In this document: positions 3,802 to 56,793 of the stretch, one piece after another
Position numbering within the stretch: the stretch's first letter is position 1
How the letters are laid out: each line of letters begins with the position of its first letter
Position numbers and translations under genes: made by a program
Notes under the pieces: model-generated
Database searches by the model: none
What the model saw: only the letters and a program-made list of their open reading frames with translations
Told to the model about the DNA's origin: nothing
Assembly (NCBI GenBank): GCA_964016885.1
Contig: OZ024744.1
Span: forward strand, 31,930,001 to 31,993,923
DNA: 63,923 nt
Direction of reading: 5' to 3'
Source of the DNA: Eledone cirrhosa
Lineage: Eukaryota

Positions 3802-3845
3802 ACCGTCCTGACGAAGGCCAGTTAAGCCTGAAATGCATAGACGGT
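3802..3845 (+). ncRNA. Type I hammerhead ribozyme, family A
   Basis: accgtc CTGACGA aggc cagttaa gcct GAAA tgca TA gacggt: perfect 6-bp stem I, 4-bp stem II, palindromic stem III. Confidence 0.92.
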
Positions 3846-12147: not shown

Positions 12148-12364
12148 CGATGGACACATGTGCTGAGCTCGCTCGGTAAGTTTTGTTTAAATTCATACGA
12201 AAATTGTAAACTGTAAACTTTCATTTTTGTACCATTTTGTAGAGGGACTGCCAGGTCAAACTTTGATCTGGTCGGTCTCTCAAAATATTCTGCGCCTTTG
12301 GGTGATATAGTATTGTAAACATTTTATCTTTCGAAAAACTTCGAAAAACCCTATTTTGAGAAAA

Positions 12365-14205
12365 ATGGCTGAAGCATCTTCACCATCAATCAAAGAAGGA
12401 AAGGGGAAGTCATACTCACAGCTTCCCCCTGCCACTGTCACAGCAGCAGATGCCAAAAGCAGAGGTCAGAGAGAGGAAGAATTGTCTTCACCTGTTGACC
12501 GACCACTAGATGTAGCCACAACTACACAAGAAATTGAAAACAACAACAACAACAACGACAACAACAGCAACAATAAAGACAACAAAAACAACAACAACAC
12601 AAACGTCACAAGTATCCACACACCAAACGAGAACGACAACAACAACAACAAAGATGAAAACAACTCAAACGACGAGAAACAAAACAATACAAACACCAAC
12701 AACGAAAACAAAATATCTTTTGCACAAACGACTAAATTATCAGTCGCTTATGTGCTGGAAGATATTTCAAAAGCCAAAGAAATGCTGGAAAAAGCCAAAA
12801 AATATGTATCTTTTGGCGAAAACGGTTCGTTTTCTATACATTCACCTCCAGAACTAAAAAAACAGACGGAATTACGAACTGTCGTATTCCGGACAATTTT
12901 AAATAAAACAAAAAAACCAGCACAACCATCTCAAGCTGAAATTCAGTTAGTACTGAAAGAAGCGATTAGAGACATCACTTTTATACAAAAGGATAAACTC
13001 TATGGGAGTTTATCCATATTGATGAAAGACGAATTGGCGGCGAAAAAATACTCTGTGTCGCCAATTCGTTCCACACACTACACCTTCTTCCCCACCTACA
13101 TGGGTAAAAAACCCCAGAGGATATGGATAACCACCATCACCCCAAACATAAACTAGTGGTGGTTACTAACCAGTTTCCTCAATTTAGACGAGGACAACCT
13201 CATTTCAATAGGGAAGGCATCCGGCGACGCGTTCAGTGGAACGCGCATCGAAGTTCTGACCCAAATAAGGCCAGAACGCATCGCCCAAATCCCTGAGCGC
13301 GTCATGCTGGATGACCGTACCCACCTCAACATTATTGTGGAGGGTAGGCCTCCCTCCTGTTACCTCTGTGGCAATAGAGGTCACCTGAGGGCTGCCTGTC
13401 CCCAGCTCACACAGAAAAAAACACTGCTACCAACACCAACACCACCCCAACTACAACAACAAAAACAACCACAACAACAACAACAACAACAAAAAACAAC
13501 AACCACACCACCACCACCACCACAACAACAACAACAAACACGTGAAAAAATAACACAGAATACTGTCCCACCCAATCCCTCCCCACCCAAAACAAATACA
13601 AAAACACACACACCGCAAACACTACCAGAAAACATACCCCTCCCACCCAACAAGGAAGACGAACCCCTTTCGTCGCAAGACGAAAAAGATCCCTTCCAAC
13701 AAGTAAAAAGAAAGAAGAGGAGACGCACCACAAACACACATGTTAACTTTAACCCCCCACCCAAGAGAACACAAACTACACACAAACCACCCCTCTCTGT
13801 CACACAACACTAACTGCTACACAAAAAAAAGACCTTACAATACACATACATGAACACAGACAACAAAGAATTACGGAAAACAATTTCAGCAAACCCTTCG
13901 GTCCAAACTGAAGGGCCAAACTTTATAACTGCTGTGGGACTACCTCATTTAAAAATGATAAAAGTCCCAATGAACTTGTACAAAACACTGAAAATAAATT
14001 TCACGGAGGACGTGGGCCCCCCCCCTGCGCCAAACCAATCAACCGCGTCCTCCTAAAAAATTCACCCCCCACCCCACCCAGACACCCACTCAACCACAAA
14101 CACACCGATGCCCCTTCACTTCCACAAACCACCACCCCACCCAACAACCCATCCCCAACCAGCATGGAAATTGAGCGGCCCGTTTCCCGGGACGCAGAAA
14201 GGTAA
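12365..14205 (+). pseudogene. Tx1 ORF1 (gag-like, zinc knuckle), interrupted by stops
   Basis: CYLCGNRGHLRAAC knuckle after IIVEGRPP; Asn/Gln/Pro low-complexity tracts; stops at ~13154, 13811, 14054. Confidence 0.75.
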
Positions 14206-14229
14206 GTGCCTTTTCTCCATACCACCAAC

Positions 14230-17200
14230 ATGGCTGTGCTAAGAGTAGGGTGTCTAAATGCGCGTGGCCTGGGTTCGTCTTGGAAGCAAGAAATGCTTCT
14301 AAATGACCTCAGGTCACAATCTATAAATGTGATGGTTATCTGCGAGGCCCGGATCAGCAGCATGCGACAGCTAGCCCCCACCATTGACGACTTTGAGATG
14401 CACGCATCTCTCTGACAGCTTGGAGGTGGGGTGGGGTTGTCGTTCTGCTGCAAAAACATATGGGCCTTGCAACACAGATAGTTCACTTGGACCCAGGGTG
14501 TCGACTGGTGGTGCTGGACCTTGGCAGTGGTGAAGGTGGAGCCTTTAGGCTGTAGCCGCATATGCCCCTTTTGGGACAGAGCGGCCCGACTTTTTCCAGC
14601 GTCTGGAGTCTTTTCTAGGGACGTCCCGTTCCCTGCTTTTAGTGGGGGATTGGAATGGTATCCTGGATGCACGTTGGGACTATGCAGGGGCATGTCCCGA
14701 CAGAGAGGGGTGCAACTGCCTCAAGGGGTTACTCGGCCGATTTGACCTGGCCGATAGATTTCGACTAGATTTTCCGACGGTGCCAACCTGGTCTTGGTCA
14801 AATCGCAGCGGATCATCTAGGTCGTACCTAGATAGATTTTTAGTTAGAAATAAGGACAGGGACTTTTTAAGTTGTCCAGAAATGCTCATGGTTGGCTATT
14901 CAGACCACAAGTTGGTGACCTGCATGGTCAACCTTGATAGAACGCATAGACAGGGCCCCGGTTACTGGAAGCTCAACTTGTCCTTGCCGGCAAGTAGAGC
15001 CTACAGGGATCGGATTAGTACGTTAGTTAAGGAACGATTGACTGGAGCGATCGTCAACAGCAGGTGGTGGGTATCTCTAAAGAGAGAGATTAGAGTAGTC
15101 TCGATAGAATTTAGTAAGGTTCTAGCTGCGGATAGGAATAGGAAGGAAAGGGAGCTAATAGATAGAGTAGAAGAGGCAATTAGAAGCGGCGACGTGGCCA
15201 GAGTGCTAGCGTCGAGAACGGCTTTGAGACAGTTTTTCGACGCGAAGCACGAAGGCTGCGTTGTCCGAAGTAAAATACGTGCTCTAGGGAACGAGGGGAC
15301 CAAAGCTGTTAGCTGGGCCCGCGTGACAGAGGCCAACGGTGGAACTAAATCCACTATCCGGTCTTTGCGAGACGTGGATGGACTGGCGATTCTTGAGCCT
15401 AGGCAGATGTGTGAGGCCTTTCAAAGGCACTTTGCCCGACTGTTCGGGAGGGGCGGGGAGCCGGTTGGGAACGTGGACTTCGGTCCATACCTCGACGGCC
15501 TGCCGCGTCTCTCGGACAGGGAGGCGAAGTCATGCGAGGAGCCGATTTCGGCCGCTGAGATAGAGATCGTGCTGGGCCAATGCGGCAAACGCAAATCCCC
15601 GGGTCTCGATGGTCTTCCTTACGAATTATATCTAGCTATGCCGGACTTGTTCCCCGATCTCCTCGAGGCGGTCTACTGCAACTGGCAACAGAACGGGAGA
15701 ATTCCCTGTACTGTGACCAAGGGCGTAGTCACGCTAGTGAGGAAGGACGAGAACAAGGGGGACGAAATAAGTAACTTCAGGCCCATAACTCTGCTAAATA
15801 CAGAGTTACAGATTTTGGCCAAGGTGCTAGCAAAGAGGTTGGCGCTTGTCGTGGGCAACCTGGTGGGAGATGCGCAGACATGCGCTATCCCGTCCAGGTC
15901 CATCCATGATAACCTCCACCTCATGCGATACATCATAGAGAGGGTTGGGAACGAACCCGGCTTTGGTGGGGCTCTGATCAACTTGGATCAATCTAAGGCG
16001 TTCGATAGGGTCGACCATGGTTACCTGGATGCGGTGCTAGCGGCGGCAGGCTTCTGACCCGTTTTCAGGGGCTGGATCACTGCTATGCACAGCAGCCACA
16101 TCTGCTCTAGGGTCAAGGTGAACGGCTACCTCTCGGAGCCGTTCAAAATCGCGCGGTCCATCCGACAAGGGTGCCCTCTCTCCTCCCTTCTGTATGTGTT
16201 GACTCTCGAGCCACTACTGCGGAAGTTGGAGTTGTTGCAGGGCATCCCTTTGGAACCGGGATTGCGAAAAGCGGTGTCGGCCAACGCCGATGACGTGACA
16301 GTAATGGTGTCGACGGCCTCCGAAATCGAGGCGGTCGGCACCTTACTGGAGGAGTACGAAAGGTTCACAGGGGCTAAGCTGAACCGGGACAAGTCGATCG
16401 GTTTGCAACTCGGCACGTGGAGGGGCAGACCGATGCCCTCCGATGGCGTCGTCGGACGCTGGACGGAGGGCCCGGTGAAGTTGCTCGGGGTCTGGTTCGG
16501 ACCGGACCTCCAGGTGGAGAAAAACTGGGCGGAGGTTACGAACAGGGTGTTTGCACTGACCCAAAAGTGGGCCAGTTGCAAACTATCGCTGAAAGGTTGA
16601 GCGGAGGTGGGGTGGCGAACACCTATATAGCGTCCGTCATCTACTACCGCCTGACCGTAGTGCCCTGCCCAAGGGAAACCCTCACCAAGATGGAGCGCGC
16701 ACTCTTCCAATTCCTTTGGAAGAGGCGGGCTCCTATGGTGAGGAGATCCATCTGCTGTCAACACCCTTCGAAAGGAGGGCTGGGGATGCCGTGGCTAATG
16801 ATGCGTAAACACGCATTAAGGCTACGGCACCTCTACGTATTCCTCACCGGTCAACCGGTGTGGGCCTCGTTTGTGAGACGAACCTTTCCCAGACTCGTCT
16901 CACTCACCGAGCTGCAATCCTGGGTCAAGCAAAGACCGAGAAAACTGGGCGCTTGGCACACTGAGTGTGCCCAGGCGCTCACCGCCCTCTGGCAGGCGGA
17001 TCCGGTTATCAGTGGAGACTCCACCGCAACATTCTATAGAGGGCTGGTACGCAGCCCTCGGAGAAGCCCTAGACATGGAGGAGGACGAACTGGCCAGCCT
17101 GTTCGGTAGGACATTCGGCCCAGGACCTATGGACAACTTCCAGAAGTCCCTGGCCTGGCAGTGCTACCGAGGGGCTCTACCCGTTCGAGAAAAGCTCTAC

Positions 17201-17400
17201 AGACACGGGCGCCCGGGTAGGGACCCCGCCAAAAAGATCTGTCCTAGATGCGTGTGCGACGAGGAAACCGTTGCACACGCATTGGTACACTGCTCGGGCG
17301 TAGCCGATCTGTGGGGCTATGTCGAACAACTGCTGTCAAGGGTGGGACCGATCCGGTTGACCACCGAGTCTATTGTAATGATTAACCACCTCCCCCCTTC
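14230..17400 (+). pseudogene. Tx1 ORF2: APE endonuclease, reverse transcriptase, C-terminal CCHC; frameshifted
   Basis: CLNARGL, GDWN, YLDRFL, SDH, KSPGLDGL, NFRPITLLN, LDQSKAFDRVDH, RQGCPLS, NADD, GGLGMP, CPRC..ETVAHALVHC. Confidence 0.92.
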
Positions 17401-17404
17401 AAAG

Positions 17405-19170
17405 ATGAACAACACATCAGAGACGGTGGATTAATTAGAAATGTACCAACACATGAGAGACAGTGGATTAATAAGAAATTTAACCAACACATCAGAGACG
17501 GTGGATTAATTAGAAATGTACCAACACATGAGAGACAGTGGATTAATTAGAAATTTACCAACACATGATGGACGGTGGATTAATTAGAAATTTACCAACA
17601 CCTGAGAGACGGTGGATTGATTAGAAATTTACCAACACATGAGAGACAGACGGTGGATTAATTAGAAATTTACCAACACCTGAGAGACGGTGGATTAATT
17701 AGAAATGTACCAACACATGAGAGACGGTGGATTAATTAGAAATTTACCAACACATGAGAGACAGACGATGGATTAATTAGAAATTTAACCAACACATGAG
17801 AGACGGTGGATTAATTAGAAATTTAACCAACACCTGAGAGACGGTGGATTAATTAGAAAGTTACCAACACATGAGAGACAGACGGTGGATTAATTAGAAA
17901 TTTAACCAACACCTGAGAGACGGTGGATTAATTAGAAATGTACCAACACATGAGAGACGGTGGATTGATTAGAAATTTAACCAACACCTGATGGACGGCG
18001 GATTAATTAGAAATTTAACCAATACATGATGGAGGGCGGATTAATTAGAAACTTAACCAACACCTGAGAGACGGCGGATTAATTAGAAATTTAACCAGAT
18101 ACCAACACCTGATGGAGGGCGGATTAATTAGAAATTTAATCAGGTAGCAACACCTGATGGAGGGCGGATTAATTAGAAATTTAACCAAGTACCAACACCT
18201 GATGGAGGGCGGATTAATTAGAAATTTAAGCAGGTAGCAACACCTGATGGAGGGCGGATTAATTAGAAATTTAAGCAGGTAGCAACACCTGATGGAGGGC
18301 GGATTAATTAGAAATTTAACCAGATCCCAACACCTGATGGGGGGCGGATTAATTATAAATTTAACCAGGTAGCAACACCTGATGGAGGGCGGATTAATTA
18401 TAAATTTAAGCAGGTAGCAACACCTGATGGAGGGCGGATTAATTAGAAATTTAAGCAGGTAGCAACACCTGATGGAGGGCGGATTAATTAGAAATTTAAC
18501 CAAGTACCAACACCTGATGGAGGGCGGATTAATTAGAAATTTAACCAAGTACCAACACCTGATGGAGGGCGGATTAATTAGAAATTTAACCAAGTACCAA
18601 CACCTGATGGAGGGCGGATTAATTAGAAATTTAACCAAGTACCAACACCTGATGGAGGGCGGATTAATTAGAAATTTAACCAAGTACCAACACCTGATGG
18701 AGGGCGGATTAATTAGAAATTTAACCAAGTACCAACACCTGATGGAGGGCGGATTAATTAGAAATTTAACCAAGTACCAACACCTGATGGAGGGCGGATT
18801 AATTAGAAATTTAACCAAGTACCAACACCTGATGGAGGGCGGATTAATTAGAAATTTAAGCAGGTAGCAACACCTGATGGAGGGCCGATTAATTAGAAAT
18901 TTAACCAGATACCAACACCTGATGGAGGGCGGATTAATTAGAAATTTAAGCAGGTAGCAACACCTGATGGAAGACGGATTAATTAGAAATTTAACCAGAT
19001 ACCAACACCTGATGGAAGGCGGATTAATTAGAAATTTAAGCAGGTAGCAACACCTGATCGAGGGCGGATTAATTAGAAATTTAACCAGGTAGCAACACCT
19101 GATGGAGGGCGGATTAATTAGAAATTTAACCAGGTAGCAACACCTGATGGAGGGCGGATTAATTAGAAAT
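17405..19170. repeat. Minisatellite: 37-42-bp units grading into 45-bp units
   Basis: Unit accaacacctgatggagggcggattaattagaaatttaaccaagt; about 8 identical units near 18480-18840. Confidence 0.95.
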
Positions 19171-19363
19171 TCACTATGATTTGTTATTCATTTAAAATAT
19201 TTTTGTTTGTTGTTAGTTTCTTTTTTTTTCTGTTTTCTTTTTATATATTAACATTCAGAGTTTTGCTGACACAGGACGAGCCTACATGGACGTAAACATA
19301 TATATGGGGGGTCACCTTTTTGAAAGGGTACGTCAATATCTATTTGTAAACTGTTATATATTG

Positions 19364-19428
19364 TATTTTGTCTGATGAAGGCATACCATGATTTAACTTG
19401 GTATCCTTGAAATATATATAATGAAATA
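19364..19428 (+). ncRNA. Type I hammerhead ribozyme, family E pLTR (~19300-19558)
   Basis: tattttgt CTGATGA agg.atacca..tggtat.cct t GAAA tatata TA atgaaata. Confidence 0.8.
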
Positions 19429-19555
19429 GATATGGTTTTATAAATATAGTTTCCATTTATTAATATTGTATATCTACTCCAAATATTTGTCGAGTGTTTT
19501 ATATCAGTTATAATAATATTTGCTTGTTGTATCCCAACAATTTAAATATAACTTT

Positions 19556-19596
<41 letters not shown>

Positions 19597-24120: not shown

Positions 24121-24512
24121 ATTGAGGATCTATATCTGCATTTGTGAAGCTATATTGCACAGAACCGACATCGCCCAAGGGTTGAGAATTTTACTTTTCT
24201 CTCTACCTAAACACCGCCACTGCATCTATTAACTAAAGGTGTGCACTCTGAACGGCTGATTGCAACTGCATTACTGCAATTCGACAGATTCATTGAGTGA
24301 GCTAGACACTGGCCGGAGACCGTTGAATTAATACCAGCGATTTTCCTTAATTCTGTTATACATATATATATATATTAGAAAGTGAGCTTTTTTTTACAAA
24401 ATGAAAAATAACCGAGGTGTCCTACACGAGTGAAAGTATAAAGAAAAAAAGATGAAATCGAAAATGCAACTGGAGTCTTATTTAAAAAAAATATATATAT
24501 ATTTATTTGTTT

Positions 24513-24550
24513 CCTTTACCGGTTTCGCAGTTCTTCTGCTTTTCAAAAGT
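24513..24550 (-). ncRNA. Hammerhead ribozyme with U3:A8 core (pLTR ~24376-24585)
   Basis: rc: ctt TTGAAAA gcag aagaa ctgc GAAA ccgg TA aag; second copy at 50613-50650. Confidence 0.75.
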
Positions 24551-24590
24551 AGAGTTGAGATGGGGGGTTTGTGGTTTTTCATCTTATTTT

Positions 24591-24639
<49 letters not shown>

Positions 24640-30048: not shown

Positions 30049-30069
30049 TTCATTAAAATAACAGATTAA

Positions 30070-30120
30070 AGTTTAAACAAAGAATCGCTGCTTTCACCCT
30101 TAACGGGATCTTCTGAAACT
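30070..30120 (-). ncRNA. Hammerhead ribozyme with CAGAAGA (U4A) core
   Basis: rc: agttt CAGAAGA t ccc gttaa ggg t GAAA gcag..ttgt TT aaact. Confidence 0.65.
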
Positions 30121-31052
30121 AACAAAGTCAATCTGTAAACGCAGAACTGGATATTTCAAAAAACGTTGCAACCGGAGGAAGGGAGGAAGACGATACTTTG
30201 GTTCGTGGTAACGTTCGCTGGCAAAGAACGGGAAAAAACGAATAATACGTCATTAATAGGAGCGGTGAAAAACAATTACGCGCAAAGACAAAACCACGTA
30301 TAAACCATGGTATAAAAGAGTTCGTAGACTAATGTTCTCTTAGGTGGTGCATATAGATGTTCTCCGGCAATAAACGAAAAAACGAAGATAATAAGTCATA
30401 TGTGGAGCGTGGAGAACAAAAGCACGCAAAGACAAAACCACGTAAATGGTATAGCAGAAGTCGTAGACTAAAATTCTAACTAGATACAAAATGAATCTCC
30501 GCTACAGAGTTAAGAACAAAGTAATTAAATACGATACAGAAGTAATAGAAACAAATAAATACATACACGCAAACAGATACGTACATACACAAGCATACGC
30601 AAAACCTTACCATAGGTATACAAAACCACGCACATATAAATATGTGTGTGTGTGTATGCTTGTGTACAAATAAATAAATAATTATATAAACGTATATAAG
30701 TAAATAAATACGTATATAACAAGCGCACACACACACCTACATATAAATACACGAATGTTCGGAGACGTAAGTCAACTAAAACAAGAAGTACACATATACA
30801 CACACCCACCATACGTACGAACCTGCATACTCACTCGGACGCAAAACTCCCGTATACACATAGCCAAACCCTAAATACCAGAATATGTAAAAATGATACG
30901 CCATAACAGTCAAATATACGTACGAGAAGGTATACATACCTTCACAAAACATATGGGTAATATATACTTACCTATGCAAATAAGTAAAGGAATAAACAAA
31001 ACATATACTTAGCTCCCACACCAAGACGTAAAATATCCACGTATAGATCGTG

Positions 31053-32045
31053 CTATCCGTTAGGGTATAACGTGGGGCTGTAATACAGGAAAGTTTTGTG
31101 CAATTCATGTTTACAAGCCGAAATTGCCTCAGATTTTTTGTTTAAGATGTGGTCTGTGGCGTAGAGTATTTCCAGGGCCTCAGCGGCGCAGAGGTCACAT
31201 GGTCTTTTATTTCCGTTATACGATCTAGCCCTAGCTAGGATCTCCCAGTGTAACTTATATTGGGTGTGGTTGTCTTTTAGACTCCAGATATAAGCTGAAA
31301 GTGACGTCATATTCCTTCTTAGAGGGTAACGAAAAGAATGGGTATGCATGTAAAGACGCTGCTTGAAACTATTGGTGGTTAACCCTATGTAGGCCCTACG
31401 GGACGTGGGTGTTACAACCTTACATTTGTAGACAATGTTACTAGAGAGGCATTTCCCGGATAGGGGGCAATCAGCCCGATTCCTACAATTACAGTTAGTA
31501 CTAACTACAGGGTTGCATGTGTTCCTACGGCTAGGTAGTTTAGCTAAATTTGAAGCTGTGATGTTATGTGCAAGGTTAGGAGTCGTAGAGTAAGACATTT
31601 TAATAGTATTTCTATTAAAAATTTTACTATATTTATGTGTAGGGGGAAAATGCTTCGTAATAAGGGAAAGAAAGATCTTAGCTAATGGTGTGGCCACCTC
31701 CATATTATATGGTGGGTTAAACCAACAAATGCGACGGGATCCATTTCTTCTAGGTCTATTTTCATACTCTGTATATGCTACCTTATCGACAAATCCACTT
31801 CGAGCAAGAGCTTCATTGTAATAAGTGGAATGGTCGTTGAAAATGCGCTCGTTGGTGGAAAGACGGGAAAGTCTCAACGAAACGTTTCTTACCAGGTTCT
31901 TGGTTATGCTGGCAGGATGGTTGGAATGCTTACTTATGTAATTAAGCGTATCATTCGGCTTTCTATATGGGTAATACAACCCATTCAATAAATTGAGGGT
32001 AACGTCGAGGTAATTAACGACCGAGAGATTGGCCTCAACCTGCAT
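31053..32045 (-). CDS. PLE RT thumb, linker and GIY-YIG endonuclease (5' truncated)
   Basis: VNYLDVTL, YRKPN..YI..SNHP, WFNPPY, CNCRNRADCPL, IVY..YIGLT..FKQR..H, CDLCAAE, CKH. Confidence 0.9.
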   Translation of the reverse strand: MQVEANLSVVNYLDVTLNLLNGLYYPYRKPNDTLNYISKHSNHPASITKNLVRNVSLRLSRLSTNERIFNDHSTYYNEALARSGFVDKVAYTEYENRPRRNGSRRICWFNPPYNMEVATPLAKIFLSLITKHFPPTHKYSKIFNRNTIKMSYSTTPNLAHNITASNLAKLPSRRNTCNPVVSTNCNCRNRADCPLSGKCLSSNIVYKCKVVTPTSRRAYIGLTTNSFKQRLYMHTHSFRYPLRRNMTSLSAYIWSLKDNHTQYKLHWEILARARSYNGNKRPCDLCAAEALEILYATDHILNKKSEAISACKHELHKTFLYYSPTLYPNG

Positions 32046-32100
32046 AGAGAGGTTGAAGCCTTTAAAGAAGGCTGTGAGTTCTTTTCTGAACCTGTCGCAA

Positions 32101-32887
32101 GATAAACAATGGACTATGCCACGTGGCTTGAACCTGTAAGTGAATTGAAGGTTCTGTAACTCTGATACACAGATTATTTATTATTAAGATGTATAAACTT
32201 GACATAACTATTATCATCTTATATTCTCTCAACTAATCACATTTGATCATATTTCTCTATCCCGTTTTCTCCCCCCATAATTATAATATTTTTTATTTTT
32301 ATTTGAAAAAATCGGTTTTTTTACATTATATTCTCTATATATTTTTTTACATATATATTTTTTATCTTTATTATTTCCACTTTTATCCTCCTTTATATAT
32401 TTCCTTACTCTTACTTTTATACCTTATTATAGTGTAATCTTCCCCATGCCTTACTATACACTATTAATTATAGATTATTATTATTACTCTTCTTCCATTT
32501 CTAATTACCTCATGTACTTTCTCCTCCGTTATATATATATATATTGTATGCCCTTCGTGTTTGTGTAGCCTCTGCACACCCTCTGCACCATACTATCGAC
32601 GCCACCCCATCTATGGTTCAGCTAACCACTCGACTCCCGGGAATGAATATGACCGCAGCTAGTAAACAAGGACCCACACCCCACCCTCCCGCACCAAAAT
32701 TAGACTTATCGTCCCCTACTTTTGTTCTTTACTCTCTTTACTCTTTGTTCTTGAATGTTTGGTTGGTAGAGTCCATAACACCAATCAAACCCCTTTTATA
32801 GCTCTGACGAATCCTACGGTTACGTAAGGAAGAAACATTGTAAGCCAATAAAAATCTTTTGATGTTGTAGACGCTCTTGTGTTCTTT

Positions 32888-32919: not shown

Positions 32920-33218
32920 CGATATTTCTGTTGGAAGCTCCCGGATAGTCCGGGAGCTTCCAACAGAAATGGTCGCATTCTTTAAGGGTATGTCAATATT
33001 TATTTATAAAACTGAACTATATTATATTTGATCTGATGAAAGCACGCCATAATTTAACTTGGTGTCCTTGAAATATGTATAATGAAATAAATATGGTTTT
33101 ATAAATATAGTTTCCATTTGTTAATATATCGTATTTTTACTCCAATAATTTGTTGAGTGCTTTATATCAGTTATAAAAATATTTGCTTGTTGTATCCCAA
33201 CAATTTAAATAGAACTTC

Positions 33219-33220
<2 letters not shown>
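32920..33220 (+). mobile_element. Family E pLTR with HHR (33025-33089) and 5' fold-back hairpin
   Basis: 22-bp perfect stem at 32924-32970; CTGATGA..GAAA tatgta TA atgaaata. Confidence 0.8.
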
Positions 33221-33298
<78 letters not shown>

Positions 33299-33617
33299 AC
33301 ACATGTATGTATATATATGTATAACAAAGGAATTGTGGTAAGGAACCAGATGGACCATAACGCACCAGAGTACTCAATAATTAGGGTAGTAGAGTGGGAA
33401 ATAGGAAAAAGTATGACCCCGATGGCAGAGCTCAAGCCGTTCCGACGGCTCTTTCTGGACTAAATTAGAATTTTTAGCCTGGTGAATAAATAGCCGAACT
33501 TTTCAAGGGGGACTTCCTTATATGGGAAGATTGTAGTTGTCAAGAGGATTGCACTTTCCGACTCTAACACGCCATATCCCGACTTTTCCACCCAGCTCAA
33601 GTTTCTTCACCCGCACG

Positions 33618-35725
33618 ATGCGAAAACACAACATCGACTTCTCCACCAAGAACATCCCAGTTCCACCGAGAAAACTTTACCTTCGGATGCTCACGCAAAA
33701 AATCGACCTTTTTGCGAAAAGACGAAGATGGAGAACTTTTTTCTGCGATAGAGGCCGCGACAATCAGGACTTCGACACCAAGGGGAGATTCGGATTCAAT
33801 ACCTACAAATCTCTCCCTCCAAACCCTATGCTCTCACCCTTCGAGAACGACCTATTCCACCTGGTCAAGAGCATTAAATTCAAACCCAGACAACAGATTC
33901 CTACAACAACTCCGTAGCAAAATAACAGAGTATGAAAACACCAACGACATCATGGTGCACTCGGACAAAACAGGAAATCTCTACTTCATCAACCCTGACA
34001 GATACCACACACTGATCAGGAGCAGCCTAAACTCCACCTATAAAAAGTCTAACCATTCAATTATCGAGGAAATAAATCGAGATGGACAACAAATTACTTC
34101 CAGCCTCGGGGTCGCCGACCGCACTGAACTCCTAGACCCACGGACTACCTACTTCACACTGAAGGACCACAAATCCGACTTCGACCGCAAACCATCCATT
34201 AGGCTTATAAACCCAACGAAGTCGGACATAGGGAGAATCAGTAAAAAGATCCTAGACCGAGTTATATCAAAAGTTAAGCAAAACGTGAGACTTAGCCTAT
34301 GGGTCAGCACCCAGGAAGTAATCTCATGATTTAGGAATATGAAGGACAAACGAGACACAACATTCATCCAGTTTGACATAGAGAGTTACTATGCATCTAT
34401 TACCTTACCGCTCCTTACGGCCGCCTTGGTCTTTGCCGAAACACTCACACCCATCACTGAGCAGGAAAGAAATATCATTCTACACGCCAGGAAGACAGTC
34501 CTACTTTTCGACAACTCTAAGTGGATAAAGAGAGCTCCCGACTCCCCCTTCGACGTCAGTATGGGCGCGACGGATTCGGCCAAGGTCACAGATCTTATAG
34601 GATTATTCCTACTATTTAAACTCACCGAAATATTTCCTACATTCGGCGGTGGATTGTACCGGGATGATGGGCTCCACACCCTCAAAGGGTACAACCCCAG
34701 TAGTACAGACCGGGTCCGTAAACAACTAATCAACTTCTTCCGGGACTAGGGATTTAAAATCAGCCTACAAACGTCCCTAACACGAGTCAATTTCCTGGAC
34801 GTTACCGTTAACCTCGAAACTGATCTGTACTACACATACAGGAAACCAAACGACAACCTGCACTACATCCACCGCCGCTCTAGCCATCCTAGAAACATCA
34901 CCAATAACCTGGTTAAAAACAACTCCCTCCGCATATCTCGTTTGTCCGCTAATGAGCAGATATTCGACGAACACGCGCCTCATTACAACCAGGCCCTCAA
35001 GCGGAGTGGCTTCCGGGAGGAAATATCCTTTTATCCAGCTTCCCTTAGTGATACCGCCGCTCACGCAACGCAGCGTGGTTCAATCCTCCCCATAATGCCG
35101 AGGTGGCAACACCTATCGGGAAAATCTTCTTTAGAGACCTCGAAAAACACTTCCCACTACAACACCGTTACCACAACATAATCAACAAAAACACCATCAA
35201 CCTCGCCTATAGCACCACACCTATCTTCGCACAAAACATCGTCTCCTCAAACAACAAAAAACTCAACCCCTATGGAAGAAATAACCTAGACATCAGTGGA
35301 GAGCCGACCAGGAGGTGTAACTCCCCTGATAGATCTACGTGCCCCCTCAACAACAAATGCCGAGAACGTAACGTGATCTACCAGTGCAACGTGAGGACGG
35401 ACACCCCCAACAAAGCTTATATAGGAATAACCGCGTGTGACTTCAAGACCCGGCTTTACCAACACCGACATACTTTCTGAAACCCGCCCCGGCGACATGC
35501 CACTACACTTTCGGGCCACATCTGGGACCTCCAAGATAATAATATAACCTACAATCTCATATGGAGCTTACTCTCCAGAGTTAACTCTTAACAGGAGGAC
35601 GCCGTCCGTTTAACTTATGCTCGGAGGAAACATTACAAATGCTGTTTTCGAAGGACCAACTCCTAAACAAGAAATACGAACTGGTAACCGCATACAAACA
35701 CTTACCTCGCCCTCAAACCCCATAA
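33618..35725 (+). pseudogene. PLE reverse transcriptase and GIY-YIG endonuclease, with stops and frameshifts
   Basis: FSTKNIPVP, SDKTGN, LKDHK, RLINPTKSDIG, QFDIESYYASI, MGATDSAKV, GLYRDDGL, FLD, CN.PDRSTCPL, IYQC..YIG. Confidence 0.92.
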
Positions 35726-36432: not shown

Positions 36433-36528
36433 CCCCCTTGAAAAGTTCGGCTATTTATTCACCAGGCTAAAAATTCTAATTTAGTCCAGAAATAGCCGTT
36501 GAAACTGCTTGAGCTCTGCCGTCGGGGT
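36433..36528 (+). ncRNA. Hammerhead ribozyme with U3:A8 core and extended stem II (inverted twin at 33417-33511)
   Basis: cccc TTGAAAA gtt cggctattt [33 nt] aaatagccg tt GAAA c(t/g)gc..gccg TC gggg. Confidence 0.65.
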
Positions 36529-38476: not shown

Positions 38477-38573
38477 GAGGTTATATTTAATTTGCTGGGA
38501 TTCAACAAGCTTAAAAATAAAAAAAAAATAAAAATTTTCCGGTATGTCAATATTTATTTATAAAACAAATCTG

Positions 38574-38639
38574 TATTTTATCTGATGAAAGCGCACCATA
38601 ATTTGCCTTGGTTGCCCTTGAAATATATATACTAAAATA
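38574..38639 (+). ncRNA. Type I hammerhead ribozyme, family E
   Basis: tattttat CTGATGA..GAAA tatata TA ctaaaata; inverted pLTR end at 38473-38510. Confidence 0.7.
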
Positions 38640-38677
38640 AATATGGTTTTATAAATATAGTTTCCATTTATTAATAT

Positions 38678-38783
<106 letters not shown>

Positions 38784-40055: not shown

Positions 40056-42250
40056 AACAGATTTAAAGATATTTTACTCTATGCCTATGACAGTAAAGAA
40101 CAGATAGAGACATTCAATGTAGAAGAGCACTGGGAGTTTCTGAAAAATAACTTATTAAAGGCGACGGACGAGATCTGTGGTTGGAGCAAGTCAACAGCGA
40201 GGAGAAGAGTGACTTGGTGGTGGAACAATAAGGTAGATGAGGTAGTTAAGGCCAAGAGACGGGCATGGAAAGAATGGAAGAACGGAGGAGCAGGGTACAT
40301 TACATAGAGACCAGGAGGGAAGCTAGGCGACAAGAATACTTAGCTAGGAGGGAAGCGCAGGATAGAGAATTCAAGCATGTCTTGCAAAGGGAGGACCAGA
40401 AGTAGGAGCTGTTCAAGATTGCGAGGCAGTGTGTCAGAGAGAAATGTGATGTCATTGGAGAGAAGTGTATCCGGAATGATAAAGGTGAGCTTGCCCTCAC
40501 AAGTGCTGCGAAGAAAGATGCGTGGAAGAGCCATTATGAAAGATTACTAAATGAGGAGAATGGATGGGAAGAAGAGACCCTGGTATAAAGCTGATGGACC
40601 AGGTCATGAAAGTAACAGAAAGAGTTATATCACAGTTGATTAGGGACCGGGTGAAACTAGATGAGATGCAATTTGGGTTTGTACCAGGAAAAGGCACCAC
40701 TGATGCCCTCTTCCTTGTGAGGCAGTTACAGGAAAAGTACCTAGCTAAAATTAAGCCGCTCTACGAGGCATTCCTCGATCTGGAGAAAGCCTTTGATAGT
40801 GTTCCACGTGCTATAAACTGGTGGGCTCTTAGAAAACTAGGAGTAGATGAATGGCTTGTGAAAGCTGTACAAGCCATGTATAGGGGAGCAGTCAGCAAAG
40901 TTAGGATTAGCAATGAGTATACCGAGGAATTTAGCGTACAGGTTGGTGTCCACCAGTACTCTGTTCTTAGCCCTCTCCTGTTCATCATAGTTTTGCAGGC
41001 AATAACGTAGGAGTTTAAGACCGGATAACCATGGGAACACCTGTATGCATATGACTTCGCACTTATAGCTGAATCTATGGTAGAACTAGAGAAGAAATTC
41101 CAAACATAGAAGCAGGGACTAGAAAGAAAGGGTCTCAAATTTAACCTGACAAAGACTAAGATCCTTGTAAGTAGACGAGAAAACAGAACCCAGATCCCCT
41201 CAGGAAAAGGGCCTTGTTCAGTATGTAGGCAAGGTGTAGGTAGAAACTCCATCCTCTGCCCCAAATGCAAACAATGGGTACACAAGAGATGTAGTGGGAT
41301 CTCAGAAGCTTAACTAAGAATGTAGGCTTCATATGTAGAAGCTGCTCTGGGACAGCAAGCAGCAAACAACCACAGGAAACAAGCACCACCAAACTCCGGG
41401 AGGGCTCTGTAGAAACAGTAGAGAGCTTCTGCTACCTAGGTGACCGAATTAGCAGCGGAGGTGGGTGTTCAGAAAGTACAATAACTAGGGTAAGAACGGG
41501 ATGGAATAAGTTCAGGGAGCTACTGCCACTGCTAGCTGCAAAATGAAAGGCAAACTGTATGATGCGTGCATACCAACAGCAATGTTACATGGTAGTGAGA
41601 CCTGGGCGCTGTCTGTAGAAGACTTGTGCAGATTAGAAAGAAACGCTCCGATGGATGTGTAATAGTAATATACGCGAACGGCAAAGCATAAACTAATTGA
41701 GAGAGAGACTGAACATAAGAGGAATCAAATGCTGTGTGCAGGAGAGGCGGTTGCGTTGGTATGGATATGTGATGCGTATGAGGGATGACGGCTACATAAA
41801 AAGGTGCAGAGCACTAAAAGTCAATGGAATTCGAGAAGTGGGGAGACCCAAGAAAACCTTTGGGATGAGGTGATGAAAGCCGACCTTACCCAATTATACC
41901 TCACAAAGGCGATGACACACGACCGTGACCTCTGGCGTCACGCAGTAACACAGAAGACCCGAAACCCCCTCACAGGTGCAAGCTGAAGCTGAAGCATATA
42001 GACAATATTCCCCCACATCCTCCCACCGCAAAGTGGTCGTGTAGCCGCCACGGAAAAAAAGCACCCAGCACTCACTGTAAATGAGGTTGGTGTTAGGAAG
42101 GGCATCCAGCTGTAGAAATCAAGCCAAATCAGTTCCTGTATGAGCAAGACAAGGTCAGCCGACTGGACACTGCCCAAAACATGACAACCCGTCCAACCCA
42201 TGCTAGCGCGGAAGAACGGACGTAAAACAGTGATGATGAGGATGATGATA
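40056..42250 (+). mobile_element. RTE-clade LINE, 5' truncated, internally deleted, decayed
   Basis: TWWWN, QFGFVPGKGTTDA, FLDLEKAFD, GVHQ.SVLSPLLF, LYAYD, FCYLG, LHGSETW, LRWYG; (GAT)n-like 3' tail. Confidence 0.88.
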
Positions 42251-45384: not shown

Positions 45385-45508
45385 TATATATATATATAGT
45401 AATAATAATAAATTCGAAGACTAAAATCCAAAGAGGACTCGGTATGGATAAATATATATCAAATATATAAGAACCGTAGTGCAAATAGTTATTAAAATAA
45501 CAGATTAA

Positions 45509-45559
45509 AGTTTAAGCAGAGAATCGCTGCTTTCACCCTTAACGGGATCTTCTGAAACT
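45509..45559 (-). ncRNA. Hammerhead ribozyme with CAGAAGA (U4A) core
   Basis: rc: agttt CAGAAGA t ccc gttaa ggg t GAAA gcag cgattct ctgc TT aaact; all three stems perfect. Confidence 0.75.
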
Positions 45560-45682
45560 AACAAAGTCAATCTGTGAACGCAGAAGTGGATATTTCAAAA
45601 AACGTTGCAACCGGAGGAAGACAGGAAGACGATACTTTGGTTCGTGGAAACGTTCCCTGGCAAATAACGGGGAAAAACGAAT

Positions 45683-45886
45683 ATAATTGTTTCTACTTTA
45701 GGTACAAGGCCACCAATTATCCAGTACATTACTGGTACTTTATTTTATCGACCCCGTAAGGATGAAAGGTGAAGCTAACCACGGCAGAATTAACCTCGGC
45801 GGGATTTGAACTCAGACTGTAAAGGGATGTAACTATGCTAGAAAGAATGGCGTCCAACCCTCTACCGATACTGCCAATTCCCCGCC
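45683..45886 (-). mobile_element. tRNA-derived SINE with target-site duplication
   Basis: Homologue of 27723; cggg(g/a)aaaaacgaatataat duplicated at ~45668 and ~45887; absent from the paralogous PLE at ~30230. Confidence 0.85.
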
Positions 45887-46721
45887 CGGGAAAAAACGAA
45901 TATAATACGTCATTATTTGGAGCTGTGAAAAACAATTACACGCAAAGGCAAAACCACGTTTATGGTATAAAGGAAGTCGTAGACTAATATTCTATTAGGT
46001 GGTTCATAGAGACGTTCTCAGGCAATGAACGGAAAAAACGAAGACAATGGAGCGGGGAAAACAATTGCACGCAAAAACAAAACCACGTAAATGGTATAAC
46101 TGAAGTCGTAGACTAAAATTCTAACTAGGAAACCGAATGAATCTCGGCTTCAGAGTTAAGAATAAAGTAAATAAAATACAGAGAAATTAAATAAATACAT
46201 ACATGCATCCATATACGTACATACACAAGTATGCGCGAAAACACTCGCCATAGGTATACAAATACACGCACGTACACACAAAAAAACAACAACAAAAAAT
46301 CCCACGCACATACAGAACCCACGCAACGCCTGTACCCGCACCCATACGAATGTATACACAAAATACACATAAAATATATATTAAAAAAATATATATATAT
46401 GTGTGTGCGTGTGTGCGTGTATGCATATAATTAAATAAACGTATATAAATAAATAAATAAATACTTATATAACAAACGCACACACATACCTACATGTAAA
46501 AACACATATGTTCGGAGACGAACGTCAACCAAAACACAAAGTACACATATACACACACCCTACATACGTACGAACCCGCATACTCACACAGACGCAAAAC
46601 TCACGTATACACATAACCAAAAGCATATGTACCAGAATATATAATATATACGCCATAACATATACAATCAAATATACGTACGAGAAAGTATACGTACCTT
46701 CACAAAACATACAGGTAATAT

Positions 46722-47481
46722 TTCTTTTCAATGGCTGACAATACCTTACCGGCGCCACTCGAATAAGGTAGTTATTTAACCCATAAATGGAGCCCTAACA
46801 GGTACTACCACCCCGGGCCAGGGCAGACCTGGGAGTCAAGACAACTAAGGGGTAACTCCACATTCCCCACATCTTCTGAACTCCCGAACTGGAGCCTTGC
46901 CACTGGATGTAGTTTAATGTCATTTGGGAGCAAAGATTGGGAATACGGAGGATGATGTGGTTGAGAGGAAGAGCAAGGCCTGGGCGGCATGCCACAGCTT
47001 GAGATCGGTGTGGAAGTCGGACCTTCGTAGAGACCTGAAAATCCGCCTCTTCATTGCTGTAGTGGAGTCTGTGCTGCTGTATGGGTCTGAGACTTGGACA
47101 CTGACCAAGAAACTCACTCAGATGGTGGATGGGTGCTACACGAGAATGCTGAGGATGGCTCTGAAAATTAATCAGTATACACTGAGGATGAAAAACTCAG
47201 AGCTGTATGGGAGCATCCCAAAAGTCAGCTCAAAAGTGACACAGAGGAGACTGAGGTTAGCTGGACATGCTCACCGACATCCAGAGTTGACATTGCACTC
47301 AGTACTCCTTTGGGAGCCCCTACATGGACACACTAGAAGAGGAAGACCAAGGTTGACGTATGTTGATGCTCTAAGGACAGACACTGGTCTGTTGGAGATG
47401 CAGGACATGGCAGCGATAATGAGGGACAGAGACCGCTGGAGAGAACTCGTCCATGGATCTCGGGAATTTTACCCGCCTTAG
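46722..47481. mobile_element. RTE-type LINE fragment with 13-bp TSD
   Basis: ORF 46924-47481 (VLLYGSETWTLTK, RLRLAGH, GRPRLTY); TSD ataca(g/t)gtaatat at 46709-46721 and 47482-47494. Confidence 0.85.
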
Positions 47482-49354
47482 ATACATGTAATATATACTT
47501 ACCTATACAAATAAGTAATGGTATAAACATAATATATACGTAGCTACCACATCAAGGCGTAAAATATCCGCGTATAGTTCGTACTATCTGTTAGGGTATA
47601 ATGTTGGGCTGTAATACAGGAAAGTTCTGTGCAATTTATGTTTACAAGCCGAAATTGCCTCAGATTTTTTGTTTAAGATGTGGTCTTTGGCATAGAGTAT
47701 TTTCATAGAGTATTTTCAGGTCACATGGTCTTTTATTTCCGTTATACGATCTAGTCCAAGCTAGGATTTCCCAATGTAACTTATATTGAGTGTGGTTGTC
47801 TTTTAGACTCCAGATATAAGCTGAAAGTGACGTCATATTCCTTCTTAAAGGGTACCGAAAATAATGGGAATGCATGTAAAGACGCTGCTTGAATCTATTG
47901 GCGGTTAACCCTATGTAGGCCCTACGGAACGTGGGTGTTTCAATCTTACAATTGTAGACAATGTTACTAGAGAGGCATTTCCCGGATAGGGGCAGTCAAC
48001 CCGATTCCTACAATTACAGTTAGTACTAACTACAGGGTTGCACGTCTTCCTACGGCTAGGTAGTTTAGCTAAATTTGAAGCTGTGATGTTATGTGCAAGG
48101 TTAGGAGTCGTAGAGTATGAAATTTTAATAGTATTTCTATTAAAAATTTTACTATATTTATGTGTAGGGGGAAAATGCTTCATAATAAGGGAGAGAAAGA
48201 TTTTAGCTAATGGTGTAGCCACCTCCATATTATATGGTGCATTATACCATATAATGCGTCGGGATCTATTTCTTCTAGGTCTATTCTCGTACTCTGTATA
48301 TGCTTCCTTATCGACAAATCCACTCCGAGCAAGAGCTTCATTGTAATAAGTCGAATGGTCGTTGAAAATATGCTCGTTAGTAGATAGACGGGAAAGCCTC
48401 AAATAAACGTTTCTTACCAGGTTCATGGTTATGCTGGCAGGATGATTAGAATGCTTACTTATGTAATTAAGCGTATCATTCGGCTTTCTATACGGGTAAT
48501 GCAAGCCATTCGATAAATTGAGGGTAACGTCGAGGTAATTAACGACCGAGAGGTTGGCCTCAACCTGTATGGAGAGGTTGAAGCCTTAAAAGAAGGCTCT
48601 GAGTTCTTTTCTGAACCTGTCGCAAGCACGTGGGCCGGACTTAATCATGGTCAAAAGACCATCATCACGGTACAAACCACCGCTCACGTTGAGAAATTCT
48701 TCCTTGATAGAGAAAAGAAGGAAAAAGCCGATAAGATCAGTAACCTCCGCAGAATCGCTGGCGCCAATACTCACGTCGAATGAGGTACTATTAGATTATT
48801 TTAATCCAAATAGAGTCGTCGAAATTAATCACCGACTTACGGGAATTGAGGATGACATCAACTTCGAAATCCTTAGCGTCTGTGAGTGTTTTAGCGAAAT
48901 TGATAGCTCTAAGGAGAAGTGGTAATGTGATGGAGGAGTAGTAATTATTGATGTCGAATTGGATAAAACGGCAATGTTCCTTGTTGCATATGTCGTTGAA
49001 CCAATTAATCACCGCGAAAGAATTGTTCCACAGTGCAAGAGGGGCCAAACTTCTAATTTCAGGTATAATTCTTTCAAGAATCCTTTTACTAAGTCTACCT
49101 AAATAGGACTTCGAAGGGTTAATAAGCCGAATAGACGGGTTGTTCGGAAAATTGGATTTGTGATCCTTCAGGGTAAAGTGGGGAGAGATAGGGTCCAGAG
49201 GTTCAGTCCAGTCCAGGATGTTGAGATCAGAAGTGATTTTAAACCCAGCATCGTTGAGTTCATTAATGACGCTCCGATTAATTTTACGGTAATATATATA
49301 GTTATTAAAGGAAACAAAACAAAGACAGGGATGCAAAAATACAGTTATATTATG

Positions 49355-49450
<96 letters not shown>

Positions 49451-49459
49451 TGTATGTAT

Positions 49460-50294: not shown

Positions 50295-50429
50295 GTGGTA
50301 AGGAAGTAGATGGACAATAACGCACCAGAGTACTCAACACTTAACGTAGTAGAGCGGGTAATAGGAAAAAGAATGACCCCCGACGGTTATTTCTGGAATA
50401 GTCAAGAAATAGCCGTCGGGGTCATTCGT

Positions 50430-50434: not shown

Positions 50435-50476
<42 letters not shown>

Positions 50477-50612
50477 AGAAAGTGATGTTTTTTTTACAAA
50501 ATGAAAAATAACCGAGGTGTCCTACACGAGTGAAAGTATAAAGAAAAAGAGATGAAATCGAAAATGCAACTGGAGTCTTATTTTAAAAAAAAATATATAT
50601 ATTTATTTGGTT

Positions 50613-50650
50613 CCTTTACCGGTTTCGCAGTTCTTTTGCTTTTCAAAAGG
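50613..50650 (-). ncRNA. Hammerhead ribozyme with U3:A8 core
   Basis: rc: cctt TTGAAAA gcaa aagaa ctgc GAAA ccgg TA aagg. Confidence 0.72.
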
Positions 50651-50710
50651 TGAGTTGAGATGGAGGGTCTGTGGTGTTTCTCACATCTATATATATATAT
50701 ATATATTTAT

Positions 50711-52923: not shown

Positions 52924-52997
<74 letters not shown>

Positions 52998-53389
52998 ATT
53001 AAATAAATGGAAAACTATATTTATAAAACCATATTTATTTCATTATATATATTTTTTGGGGATATCATATTAACAATATGCTATGCCTTCATCAGACAAA
53101 ATACAATATAAACAGTTTTATAGATAAATATATTCGACATACCGTAATAAACATCAACTTCATTTGAAGAGGTTTACTCTAGCAGTGAAAATACAGAGAG
53201 AAAGAAAGAGAGAGAGAAAAGAGGGAAATAAGAAAGAAAGAAAGACAAAACGAAGAAAAGGAAGAAAAAGAAGAAAAAGAAAAAGAAGAAATGCATGGGA
53301 CAAAATAGAGAGATGGAAAAATAGATAAAGCGAAGAGCTTCATGTAAAGAGACAGAAAGAGAAATTTTGAGATTGACCTGCCAGTTAGA

Positions 53390-55021
53390 TTGATCGCACC
53401 TTCAAAATCGGACCTGGGCAAATTAAGCAAAAACATTCTTGACAGGGTGATACTGCAAATTAAGAACTTGGATTGTGTATCTAACCTGAGCTTGTGGAAG
53501 GGAACTGGAGAGGTTGTTGAGTGGTTTAGGCAAATTAAATATGACAATAATAATAGGTTTATTCAACTTGATATAGCTAACTATTATTCTTCTATTACCC
53601 CTAGTCTACTAAATAAGGCACTAAATTACGCATTCAAACATACGGACCTAACTAGCAAAGAAATGCATATTATATTATCGGCTAGGAAAACTTTGATAGA
53701 ATTTGATGACAAATTATGGACCAGAGCAGATAGAGATAGCAATTTTGACATAACTATGGGATCTTCCGACTCAGCTCAGGTAACTGACCTTGTGGGCTTA
53801 TTTTTAATCAATTCGCTACATAGGAAAATACCTGGTACTACCGGAGGTTTATATAGGGATGACATGCTTTTACTTATTAATAATAATAACCCTGAACTAA
53901 ATAGAAAATGTAAACAAATTACAACATTTTTTAATTACTTTAACCTTAAAATAGAAATTGAGAACAACCATAGAATAGTCAATTTCCTAGATATAACATT
54001 AAATCTCAACACATGTCTCCACTATCCTTTTCACAAGTTGAATGAAAACTTAAACTATGTCAACTTTAACTCTAACCACCCCAGATCTGTCAAAAACACT
54101 ATAGTAAACTCAGTCCAAAAACGTATCTCTAGGATCTCGTCGAATAGAAAGATTTTTGAAGAAAAGGCCCAATACTATAATGATGCACTAGCTAGGGCAG
54201 GGTATGCTGATAAGATTGTGTACATAGATAATGATAAACAAACTAAACAAAGTAACAACTTTTTTAATTACGGAAACAACATTAACAACTATAATAGAAA
54301 GCATTACAATAATTCCAAAGGACAAAAAAGAAATAGAACTAGGAACATAATTTGGTTTCCCCCCCCCCCCCCCCCTTTTTCACTAAACATTAAAACCCAC
54401 ATCGCTAAATTATTTTTCAAAGCTCTTGATAATCGCTTCCCTAGAACACATAGGTACCACTCAATCTTCAATAGGCATACAATTAAATTAACCTACTCAT
54501 CCACCAAAAATTTAGCACAAAATATTAATAGAATAAATAATAGGAACTTAAAACCTACTGATAATAGCATAAATAATATACAAGTTAACAAATGTAACTG
54601 TAGAGATAGATCTAAATGTCCGTTAAATAACAACTGCTTAGTTAAAAATATAGTATACAATTGTAATGTTAATACTGACTCTAATTCTTTTATCTACGTC
54701 GGTTCCACATCGACGGAATTTAAACTTCGCTATAATAACCACAAGAATTCTTTCACAGATCCAAATAAAAAATCTTCAACGGCACTATCAGGGGTACTCT
54801 GGCAACTTAAGCTAGATAACGTTAGATATTCGACGGCTTGGAATATAGTTTCAAGAGGGATTCCTTTTAATTCATCCTCTGAGACATGTGACCTCTGCGC
54901 AGAGGAGATATTCTTTATACTAAAATCTAAAAATTCCCTTAACCTACGGACAAATTTATTCAGTTGTTGCAAACATAGATTAAACTCAACGTTTAAATAT
55001 AAATTTAAATTTAAAATGTAG
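53390..55021 (+). CDS. PLE reverse transcriptase and GIY-YIG endonuclease, open frame, N-terminus truncated
   Basis: PSKSDLGKLSK, QLDIANYYSSI, MGSSDSAQV, GLYRDD, FLDITL, SNHP, CNCRDRSKCPL, IVY..YVG..FKLRYNNH, CDLCAEE, CKH. Confidence 0.93.
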   Translation: MIAPSKSDLGKLSKNILDRVILQIKNLDCVSNLSLWKGTGEVVEWFRQIKYDNNNRFIQLDIANYYSSITPSLLNKALNYAFKHTDLTSKEMHIILSARKTLIEFDDKLWTRADRDSNFDITMGSSDSAQVTDLVGLFLINSLHRKIPGTTGGLYRDDMLLLINNNNPELNRKCKQITTFFNYFNLKIEIENNHRIVNFLDITLNLNTCLHYPFHKLNENLNYVNFNSNHPRSVKNTIVNSVQKRISRISSNRKIFEEKAQYYNDALARAGYADKIVYIDNDKQTKQSNNFFNYGNNINNYNRKHYNNSKGQKRNRTRNIIWFPPPPPPFSLNIKTHIAKLFFKALDNRFPRTHRYHSIFNRHTIKLTYSSTKNLAQNINRINNRNLKPTDNSINNIQVNKCNCRDRSKCPLNNNCLVKNIVYNCNVNTDSNSFIYVGSTSTEFKLRYNNHKNSFTDPNKKSSTALSGVLWQLKLDNVRYSTAWNIVSRGIPFNSSSETCDLCAEEIFFILKSKNSLNLRTNLFSCCKHRLNSTFKYKFKFKM

Positions 55022-55399
55022 TATATTTAGTTTGATTTATATTTATATGAGAACTAGCCGATAAATCTTTTGATTCCTAAATCTTTGATTCCCTCTTTTT
55101 ACTCTTTTTATTGTTTATTTTATTTTATTTATTTTTATTTTTATTTTTATCTAAACATTCCTCATGAAAAATTAAGCTACCCTAAAAGCCGATGCTCCAA
55201 ATTTTTTGAATTAACCTTACACTTGATAAACTTATATATTAAATATAGGAACATATGTAGACATTATTGGACATCATAATCTTTTTTTTTTTTTGCGATA
55301 TTCCTTGCTAGATGTGATTTGATAGATAATTTTTGGCTTTGTCTTGTAGTGAACTTGACAATATATTGTCAATTAACTTTGAAGGGTTGTTCTTTGTGG

Positions 55400-55500
55400 T
55401 TTATTTTTATTTTCATTTTTATTTTTATTTTTATTTTTATTTTTATTTTTATTTTTATTTTTATTTTTATTTTTATTTTTATTTTTATTTTTATTTTTAT
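55400..55500. repeat. (TTTTTA)n repeat in the PLE 3' UTR
   Basis: Direct reading. Confidence 0.9.
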
Positions 55501-56197: not shown

Positions 56198-56232
<35 letters not shown>

Positions 56233-56665: not shown

Positions 56666-56793
56666 AATATGGTTTTATAAATATAGTTTTCCATTTATTT
56701 AATATTGTAAATATACTCCAAATATTTGTCGAGTGCTTTTATATCAGTTATAAATATTTACTAGTTGTAACCCAACAATTTTAAATATAACTT

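Follow-up and report, generated by a model that had tools for sequence, protein, structure and literature searches.

In hammerhead ribozymes, C3 and G8 form a tertiary Watson-Crick pair (PMC3884650), and in natural examples this pair covaries to U3-A8, an exchange that was termed compensatory and shown to be active in vitro (Perreault 2011, PMC3088659). The initial annotation of the locus described here had stated both the tertiary pair and the retention of activity by the double change, and these sources support it on each point. The novelty that it implied for a U3:A8 core did not hold, as the variant has been in print since 2011 (PMC3088659), and since 2014 in PLEs with the same UUGAAAA core (PMC4209133). 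U3-A8 is found in the minimal hammerheads of Cercyon PLEs of Schistosoma mansoni, for which a dedicated descriptor gave about 1,300 matches (Cervera and De la Pena 2014, PMC4209133), UUGAAAA being printed in row S. mansoni(4) of Fig. S3. PLE minimal hammerheads displayed no activity alone and low activity as dimers; they usually carry an extra nucleotide between A9 and G10.1, which two rows of Fig. S3 lack (PMC4209133). Our search of a literature collection returned no kinetic data on the double change.

PLEs of the Hydra clade use (TA)n as insertion sites, have their hammerhead 100-200 nt from the 3' end and show inverted 5' copies (Craig et al. 2021, PMC8557442). The same source considers an inverted 5' piece a hallmark of PLEs, and presents the role of the hammerhead in PLE transposition as still unclear. 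All 26 Hydra rows of its File S2, for which a general descriptor was used, have a CUGA..GA core and a helix III of 3-4 bp. Insertion into (TA)n also characterizes PLEs of the Neptune and Naiad clades. Non-LTR retrozymes are arranged in tandem; their unit, of 200-350 nt, is non-coding and bears a type I hammerhead that is often dimer-dependent (Cervera and De la Pena 2020, PMC7229834). An origin of animal retrozymes from the ends of PLEs is put forward in a 2026 preprint (bioRxiv 10.64898/2026.07.22.740005).

The window analysed here, a stretch of 63,923 nt from Eledone cirrhosa, is DNA of animal type, rich in AT and laden with microsatellites, and four of its coding regions are PLE-like. It holds two minimal type I hammerhead motifs with a U3:A8 core, whose positions agree with the initial annotation; both are on the minus strand, which had been left unstated (Table 1). 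Read from 24550 to 24513, copy 1 comprises the 5' strand of stem I (ACUU), UUGAAAA, stem II (GCAG/CUGC with a 5-nt loop), GAAA, CCGG, U16.1, A17 (24517) and the 3' strand of stem I (AAGG). Copy 2 (50650 to 50613) has a 4-bp stem I (CCUU/AAGG) and a 3-bp stem II (GCA/UGC) with a 7-nt loop, and is otherwise organized as copy 1; stems I and II count 3 + 4 bp in copy 1 and 4 + 3 bp in copy 2.

Table 1. Positions of the hammerhead motifs, their carrier repeats and the related elements of the window.
Feature	Position	Strand	Remarks
Copy 1 of the minimal type I hammerhead (U3:A8 core)	24513..24550	-	predicted cut 24517/24516
Copy 2 of the minimal type I hammerhead (U3:A8 core)	50613..50650	-	predicted cut 50617/50616
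UUGAAAA core box, copy 1 (U3 = 24546, A8 = 24541)	24540..24546	-	from the sequence
ACCGGU palindrome, copy 1, A15.1 to U16.1	24518..24523	-	predicted 6-bp intermolecular helix III, -8.3 kcal/mol
206-nt repeat, copy 1, 93.7% identical to copy 2	24375..24580	-	cut site to 3' end 142 nt
206-nt repeat, copy 2, between (TA)n tracts	50475..50680	-	
(TA)n tract flanking copy 1, 3' side	24363..24374	.	
(TA)n tract flanking copy 1, 5' side	24594..24637	.	
(TA)n tracts around copy 2	50435-50472 and 50688-50705		
21-nt inverted copy (20/21) of 24437-24457, at 5' end of copy 1	24577..24597	+	BLAST E 0.001 within window
PLE-like coding region	53348-55021	+	557-aa open frame; YRDD, CxCx5C and GIY-YIG-like motifs
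PLE-like coding region	about 33600-35600	+	RWR and DKT motifs; degenerate linker cysteine motif; frameshifted
PLE-like coding region	31056-32177	-	
PLE-like coding region	about 47600-49300	-	
Hydra-clade-like PLE	52986-56797		inverted 5' repeat 52986-53365 / 56336-56715, 99% identical; CUGAUGA hammerhead at 56606
Solo stubs of the CUGAUGA family linked to the 53348 ORF	19324-19559, 32984-33222, 38541-38681		
Five further C3:G8 families, short TA-flanked repeats	3032, 5600, 8419, 19731, 23846; 3629, 3808, 21318; 39833, 42816, 43383; 4717; 25073		
Second UUGAAAA (U3:A8) type I hammerhead	36434-36525 and 33419-33510	+ and -	direct/inverted repeats of the 33600-35600 ORF; motifs at 36438 and 33506

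The hammerhead core is present in both copies as UUGAAAA plus GAAA, with U3 and A8 as had been claimed and a 3:8 combination (U:A) that is Watson-Crick. Both also have the A15.1-U16.1 pair, an NUH cut site (triplet GUA) and a G10.1-C11.1 pair that closes stem II; G10.1 directly follows A9, with no extra unpaired nucleotide, and stem II has 3-4 bp. Two descriptions needed adjustment. Stems I and II, said to be paired, are able to pair in both copies but with one mismatch each, in the outer pair of stem I in copy 1 (24550) and in the inner pair of stem II in copy 2 (50636), and the palindrome reported as CCGG is present in both but is really six bases long, ACCGGU.

The carrier repeats differ from each other at 12 positions, 2 of 38 within the motif and 10 of 168 elsewhere, and conservation of the motif thus does not exceed that of its surroundings. 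Both differences in the motif break a stem pair, and the two copies available for a covariation check hold no compensatory change. Each locus is a single repeat copy, without tandem arrangement, and the loci lie 26 kb apart with unrelated outer flanks. The copies start within about 10 nt of each other and finish on the same base, and the cut site is located 142-144 nt from the TA-joined 3' end. Since both independently inserted copies share U3 and A8, we infer that their common source had both nucleotides. All four repeat ends abut (TA)n, a feature that is not specific to PLEs, and the inverted 5' piece, found in one of the two copies, lacks the tail of the element.

Sequencing runs place the repeat in a large family. 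Of the 23 runs listed, the four that were aligned to copy 1 (their summed depths are not copy numbers, and one run may be the window's own source) include one in which 2,606 contigs match the 3' half of copy 1, while the motif-bearing half received no depth; 874 of these contigs are at least 99% identical, 999 are 95-99%, 616 are 90-95% and 117 are below that. From a second study, whose run bears the same species label, 2,144 reads fell on the 3' half of copy 1. Runs of other organisms contributed small shares, and in the two that were aligned 6 and 3 contigs matched this half, too few to inform on the motif; no RNA data set was among the sources listed. Where reads and contigs have loose ends, these pass into TA tracts, both at the 3' end and at 24437-24441 (52 and 28 contigs, 222 reads); the latter site, a second TA-joined end, coincides with the end of the inverted piece in copy 1. 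The thousands of matching contigs and reads, together with TA-joined ends at two places, thus indicate that the family is many-copy and has two TA-joined ends. In the sequences searched, we found no parent ORF beside either copy or elsewhere, and no longer copy of the repeat.

When compared to the published Cercyon motifs (PMC4209133), both copies share the type I topology, the short stem I, G10.1-C11.1, a palindromic helix III that calls for a dimer, occurrence mostly as solo copies, and the U3-A8 core. They differ in that stem II has 3-4 bp instead of 6-8, no extra nucleotide follows A9, helix III carries a CG insert (ACCGGU), no ORF is linked, and position 17 is A, versus U and G in the two published U3-A8 rows. 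The 3/8 covariation is the same as that of the variants of Perreault 2011 (PMC3088659), but the core variants named there come from phage and bacteria, whereas the present motif belongs to an animal repeat and has a dimer-dependent design. With the Hydra clade, our repeats share the (TA)n flanks, the inverted 5' piece and the distance between cut site and 3' end; they differ by their U3:A8 core and 2-bp helix III, as the listed members have C3:G8 and 3-4 bp, and none of the 26 Hydra rows tabulated in PMC8557442 is U3:A8. Unit size and a type I hammerhead of the often dimer-dependent kind are in common with non-LTR retrozymes, which are, however, tandem and have a canonical 6-bp stem I (PMC7229834), unlike the solo copies described here.

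A structure-aware scan of the window, requiring the core, both stems and the palindrome, with 100 block shuffles as the null, retrieved the two U3:A8 hammerhead motifs from the window and none from the 100 shuffles; the two copies are one family and hence count as one event. When any Watson-Crick 3:8 pair was allowed, one match appeared in 6 of 100 shuffles. By contrast with the full motif, the sequence pattern alone, with no stems required, is fairly common (mean 0.80 per shuffle), and 4 of 100 shuffles had at least the three matches observed. Rfam gave no hammerhead match among the 150 of 183 window matches listed, nor in local scans, and it was also blind to a canonical CUGACGA motif at 3804-3843 used as control, so that its blank result is uninformative for the U3:A8 motifs. 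An Rfam match to MALAT1 (E 1.3 and 7.8), far below the gathering score, was rejected as chance.

The surroundings are rich in PLEs. No Pfam family was assigned to the 8 PLE-like ORF pieces (4 of which were also tried at E 5), and the Hydra-clade marks RWK, DKT and CxCx5C are found in ORFs of the window. The 53348 ORF has 154 homologues, the named ones being from Argonauta, Hydra and a symbiont assembly; among the 120 of 154 listed, CxCx5C occurs in 103, DK[TS] in 74 and RW[KR] in 51. Two Hydra-clade-like PLE copies on the minus strand (30052-32177 and 45491-49459) are about 90% identical, and hammerhead scans of their long 3' region found none. We also note a broken non-LTR retrotransposon at 12311-17434 (+), in which an ORF lies upstream and endonuclease (PF03372, a weak match) and reverse transcriptase (RT; PF00078) domains are recognizable, further RT remnants at 40555-41010 and 46918-47481, tandem arrays of 37-38 nt and 45 nt units at 17370-19300, and an array of CT-rich units of about 60 nt across the last 7 kb (57000-63923).

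The window holds 21 listed hammerhead-like motifs (two of them added by eye) from 8 families, 17 with C3:G8 and 4 with U3:A8; a G3:C8 match within a LINE ORF at 15713 was dropped as likely chance. One CUGAUGA family is found at both the direct and the inverted ends that belong to the 53348 ORF; it also forms solo stubs bounded by TA tracts, and in this window these stubs stop about 50 nt upstream of the core. Its cut site is 141-144 nt from the end in 3 copies, versus 142-144 nt in our repeats, which match these PLE-linked stubs in the position and orientation of the motif. The two tails show weak similarity (z 1.3 to 2.7) in AT-rich sequence. The further C3:G8 families include some inverted pairs (3629/3808 and 42816/43383) and have CUAG, UGCA or UGUACA as helix III palindromes; the C3:G8 families likewise keep uncut motifs.

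A second UUGAAAA hammerhead in the window has C17, a stem I of CCCC/GGGG and stems II and III that are both long, with GGAA replacing GAAA in its inverted copy and partial copies near 1240-1295 and 50370-50425. Its motifs sit in the repeats that flank a Hydra-clade-like PLE ORF, and the UUGAAAA core is thus tied directly to a PLE in this genome, outside the family of the two loci described here. Homology between the two UUGAAAA families was rejected, as 184 of 300 shuffles score as high.

Beyond the window, motifs near Hydra-like ORFs of other contigs were C3:G8 in 30 of 30 cases; these motifs, which had a passing score, come from 14 of 24 loci, 9 of the 14 belonging to one assembly. At loci L016-L039, Hydra-like PLE ORFs are accompanied by canonical hammerheads although the contigs are filed under bacterial genomes; these contigs are probably host animal DNA binned in error. 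A metagenome scan for the U3:A8 pattern gave 13 matches, which we took as chance: 12 have at most one stem I pair and none has TA tracts. The other, L008, has 5 possible stem I pairs in a contig of 59% GC. Viral contigs gave two pattern matches, both without stem I, no match to the tail motif and no PLE relatives.

Folding in silico showed that the monomeric hammerhead is unfavourable (+2.4 and +3.7 kcal/mol for the two copies) and no more stable than its own shuffles (z -0.56 and -0.84), and that a double hammerhead is favourable (-15.5 and -12.9 kcal/mol). The ACCGGU duplex between two copies contributes -8.3 kcal/mol, and the palindromic helix is part of both best cofolds. Relative to the best dimer fold, the double hammerhead costs a further 3.6 and 5.4 kcal/mol; for a canonical control the gap is larger (-11.9 versus -19.5 kcal/mol). 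A competing hairpin is the best monomer fold of both copies, with a probability of 0.59 in the full copy 2 RNA, and stem I pairing is close to 0 in the full RNAs of both. In addition, U3 is opposite A17, and a pair between them would extend stem I across the cut site, lowering the energy of the double hammerhead by 1.4 kcal/mol in both copies. With a stem pair lost in each, and with U3 free to mispair with A17, the two solo copies, proposed as a functional variant in the initial annotation, are probably inert, decaying passengers.

We consider it likely, with a probability of about 0.75, that the motif is a dimer-dependent minimal type I hammerhead from the pseudo-LTR that forms the 3' end of a PLE with many copies and (TA)n as its target, the two loci being short, 5'-truncated insertions. 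A PLE parent is suggested by the architecture, namely the TA flanks, the inverted 5' piece and the layout as 3' stubs, and the dimer mechanism and cleavage would apply to the parent element. Speaking against this reading are the absence of a linked ORF in the sequences searched, the weak likeness of the tail to that of the PLE-linked family, the ordinary conservation of the motif, the short stem II with no extra nucleotide after A9, the competing hairpin and the energy gap between the double hammerhead and the best dimer fold. In the cycle envisaged for the parent, two copies of its RNA would join by their ACCGGU palindromes, and the double hammerhead would form with U3:A8 standing in for C3:G8. 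The parent element would then slowly cut a tandem precursor RNA after G-U-A, and reverse transcription from the TA target would copy the 3' end, often halting 30-45 nt beyond the motif to leave stubs. Our best reading of the core is that it represents a further example of the published U3:A8 variant, inherited from a U3:A8 master.

The repeat could instead be a self-contained, non-autonomous unit of ~210 nt, SINE-like or a retrozyme monomer, which is transcribed itself and moved in trans by a (TA)n-targeting PLE, its hammerhead being selected in its own cycle. The near-common start and identical final base of both copies would suit such a unit, as would the abundance of nearly identical relatives (874 of the 2,606 contigs reach 99%), a short CG-type palindromic helix III like that of canonical animal motifs, and the derivation of animal retrozymes proposed in the preprint (bioRxiv 10.64898/2026.07.22.740005). 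Yet neither locus has the tandem copies that define non-LTR retrozymes, PLE-linked solo copies likewise stop about 50 nt upstream of the core, and copy 1 bears an inverted 5' piece, all of which makes this explanation fairly unlikely. Chance resemblance within an unrelated TA-inserted repeat such as a MITE would fit the AT-rich context, the blank Rfam search and the unremarkable stability of the monomer; we hold it to be highly improbable, as no shuffle of 100 yielded the motif, Rfam misses a canonical motif too, position and orientation are those of the other hammerhead stubs, and no terminal inverted repeat is common to both copies.

It is also conceivable, though very unlikely in our estimate, that the hammerhead is dead or purposely damped, with U3:A17 lengthening stem I so that it covers the cut site, the family spreading with cleavage slight or absent, and U3:A8 being no working compensation. 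The U3-A17 opposition and its gain of 1.4 kcal/mol in both copies are in line with this idea, and a related trap is known, as the C3-G17 pair is described as inhibitory in minimal hammerheads (PMC3884650). Both insertions have also kept an uncut motif, from which it could be deduced that their templates were uncut or religated, but the C3:G8 families of the window retain uncut motifs equally. Moreover, U-A pairs less strongly than C-G, the tertiary 3:8 pair is not counted in secondary-structure energies, and selection at some time best explains a change at exactly positions 3 and 8.

A hammerhead inherited from a PLE parent, our preferred reading, adds one family to the known U3:A8 cores. Scans fixed on CUGANGA undercount hammerheads, as 4 of the 21 motifs listed in the window have U3:A8. 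We regard it as unlikely that two unrelated and successful PLE families of the same animal genome, the present one and the Hydra-clade-like element at 33.4-36.5 kb, came to fix U3:A8 independently and that, in the present family, the swap and A17 together build a U3:A17 brake that tunes the ribozyme down and leaves most RNA uncut for reverse transcription. If U3:A17 pairing does set the cleavage rate, a family that is damped and yet prolific would bear on the role of the hammerhead in PLE transposition.
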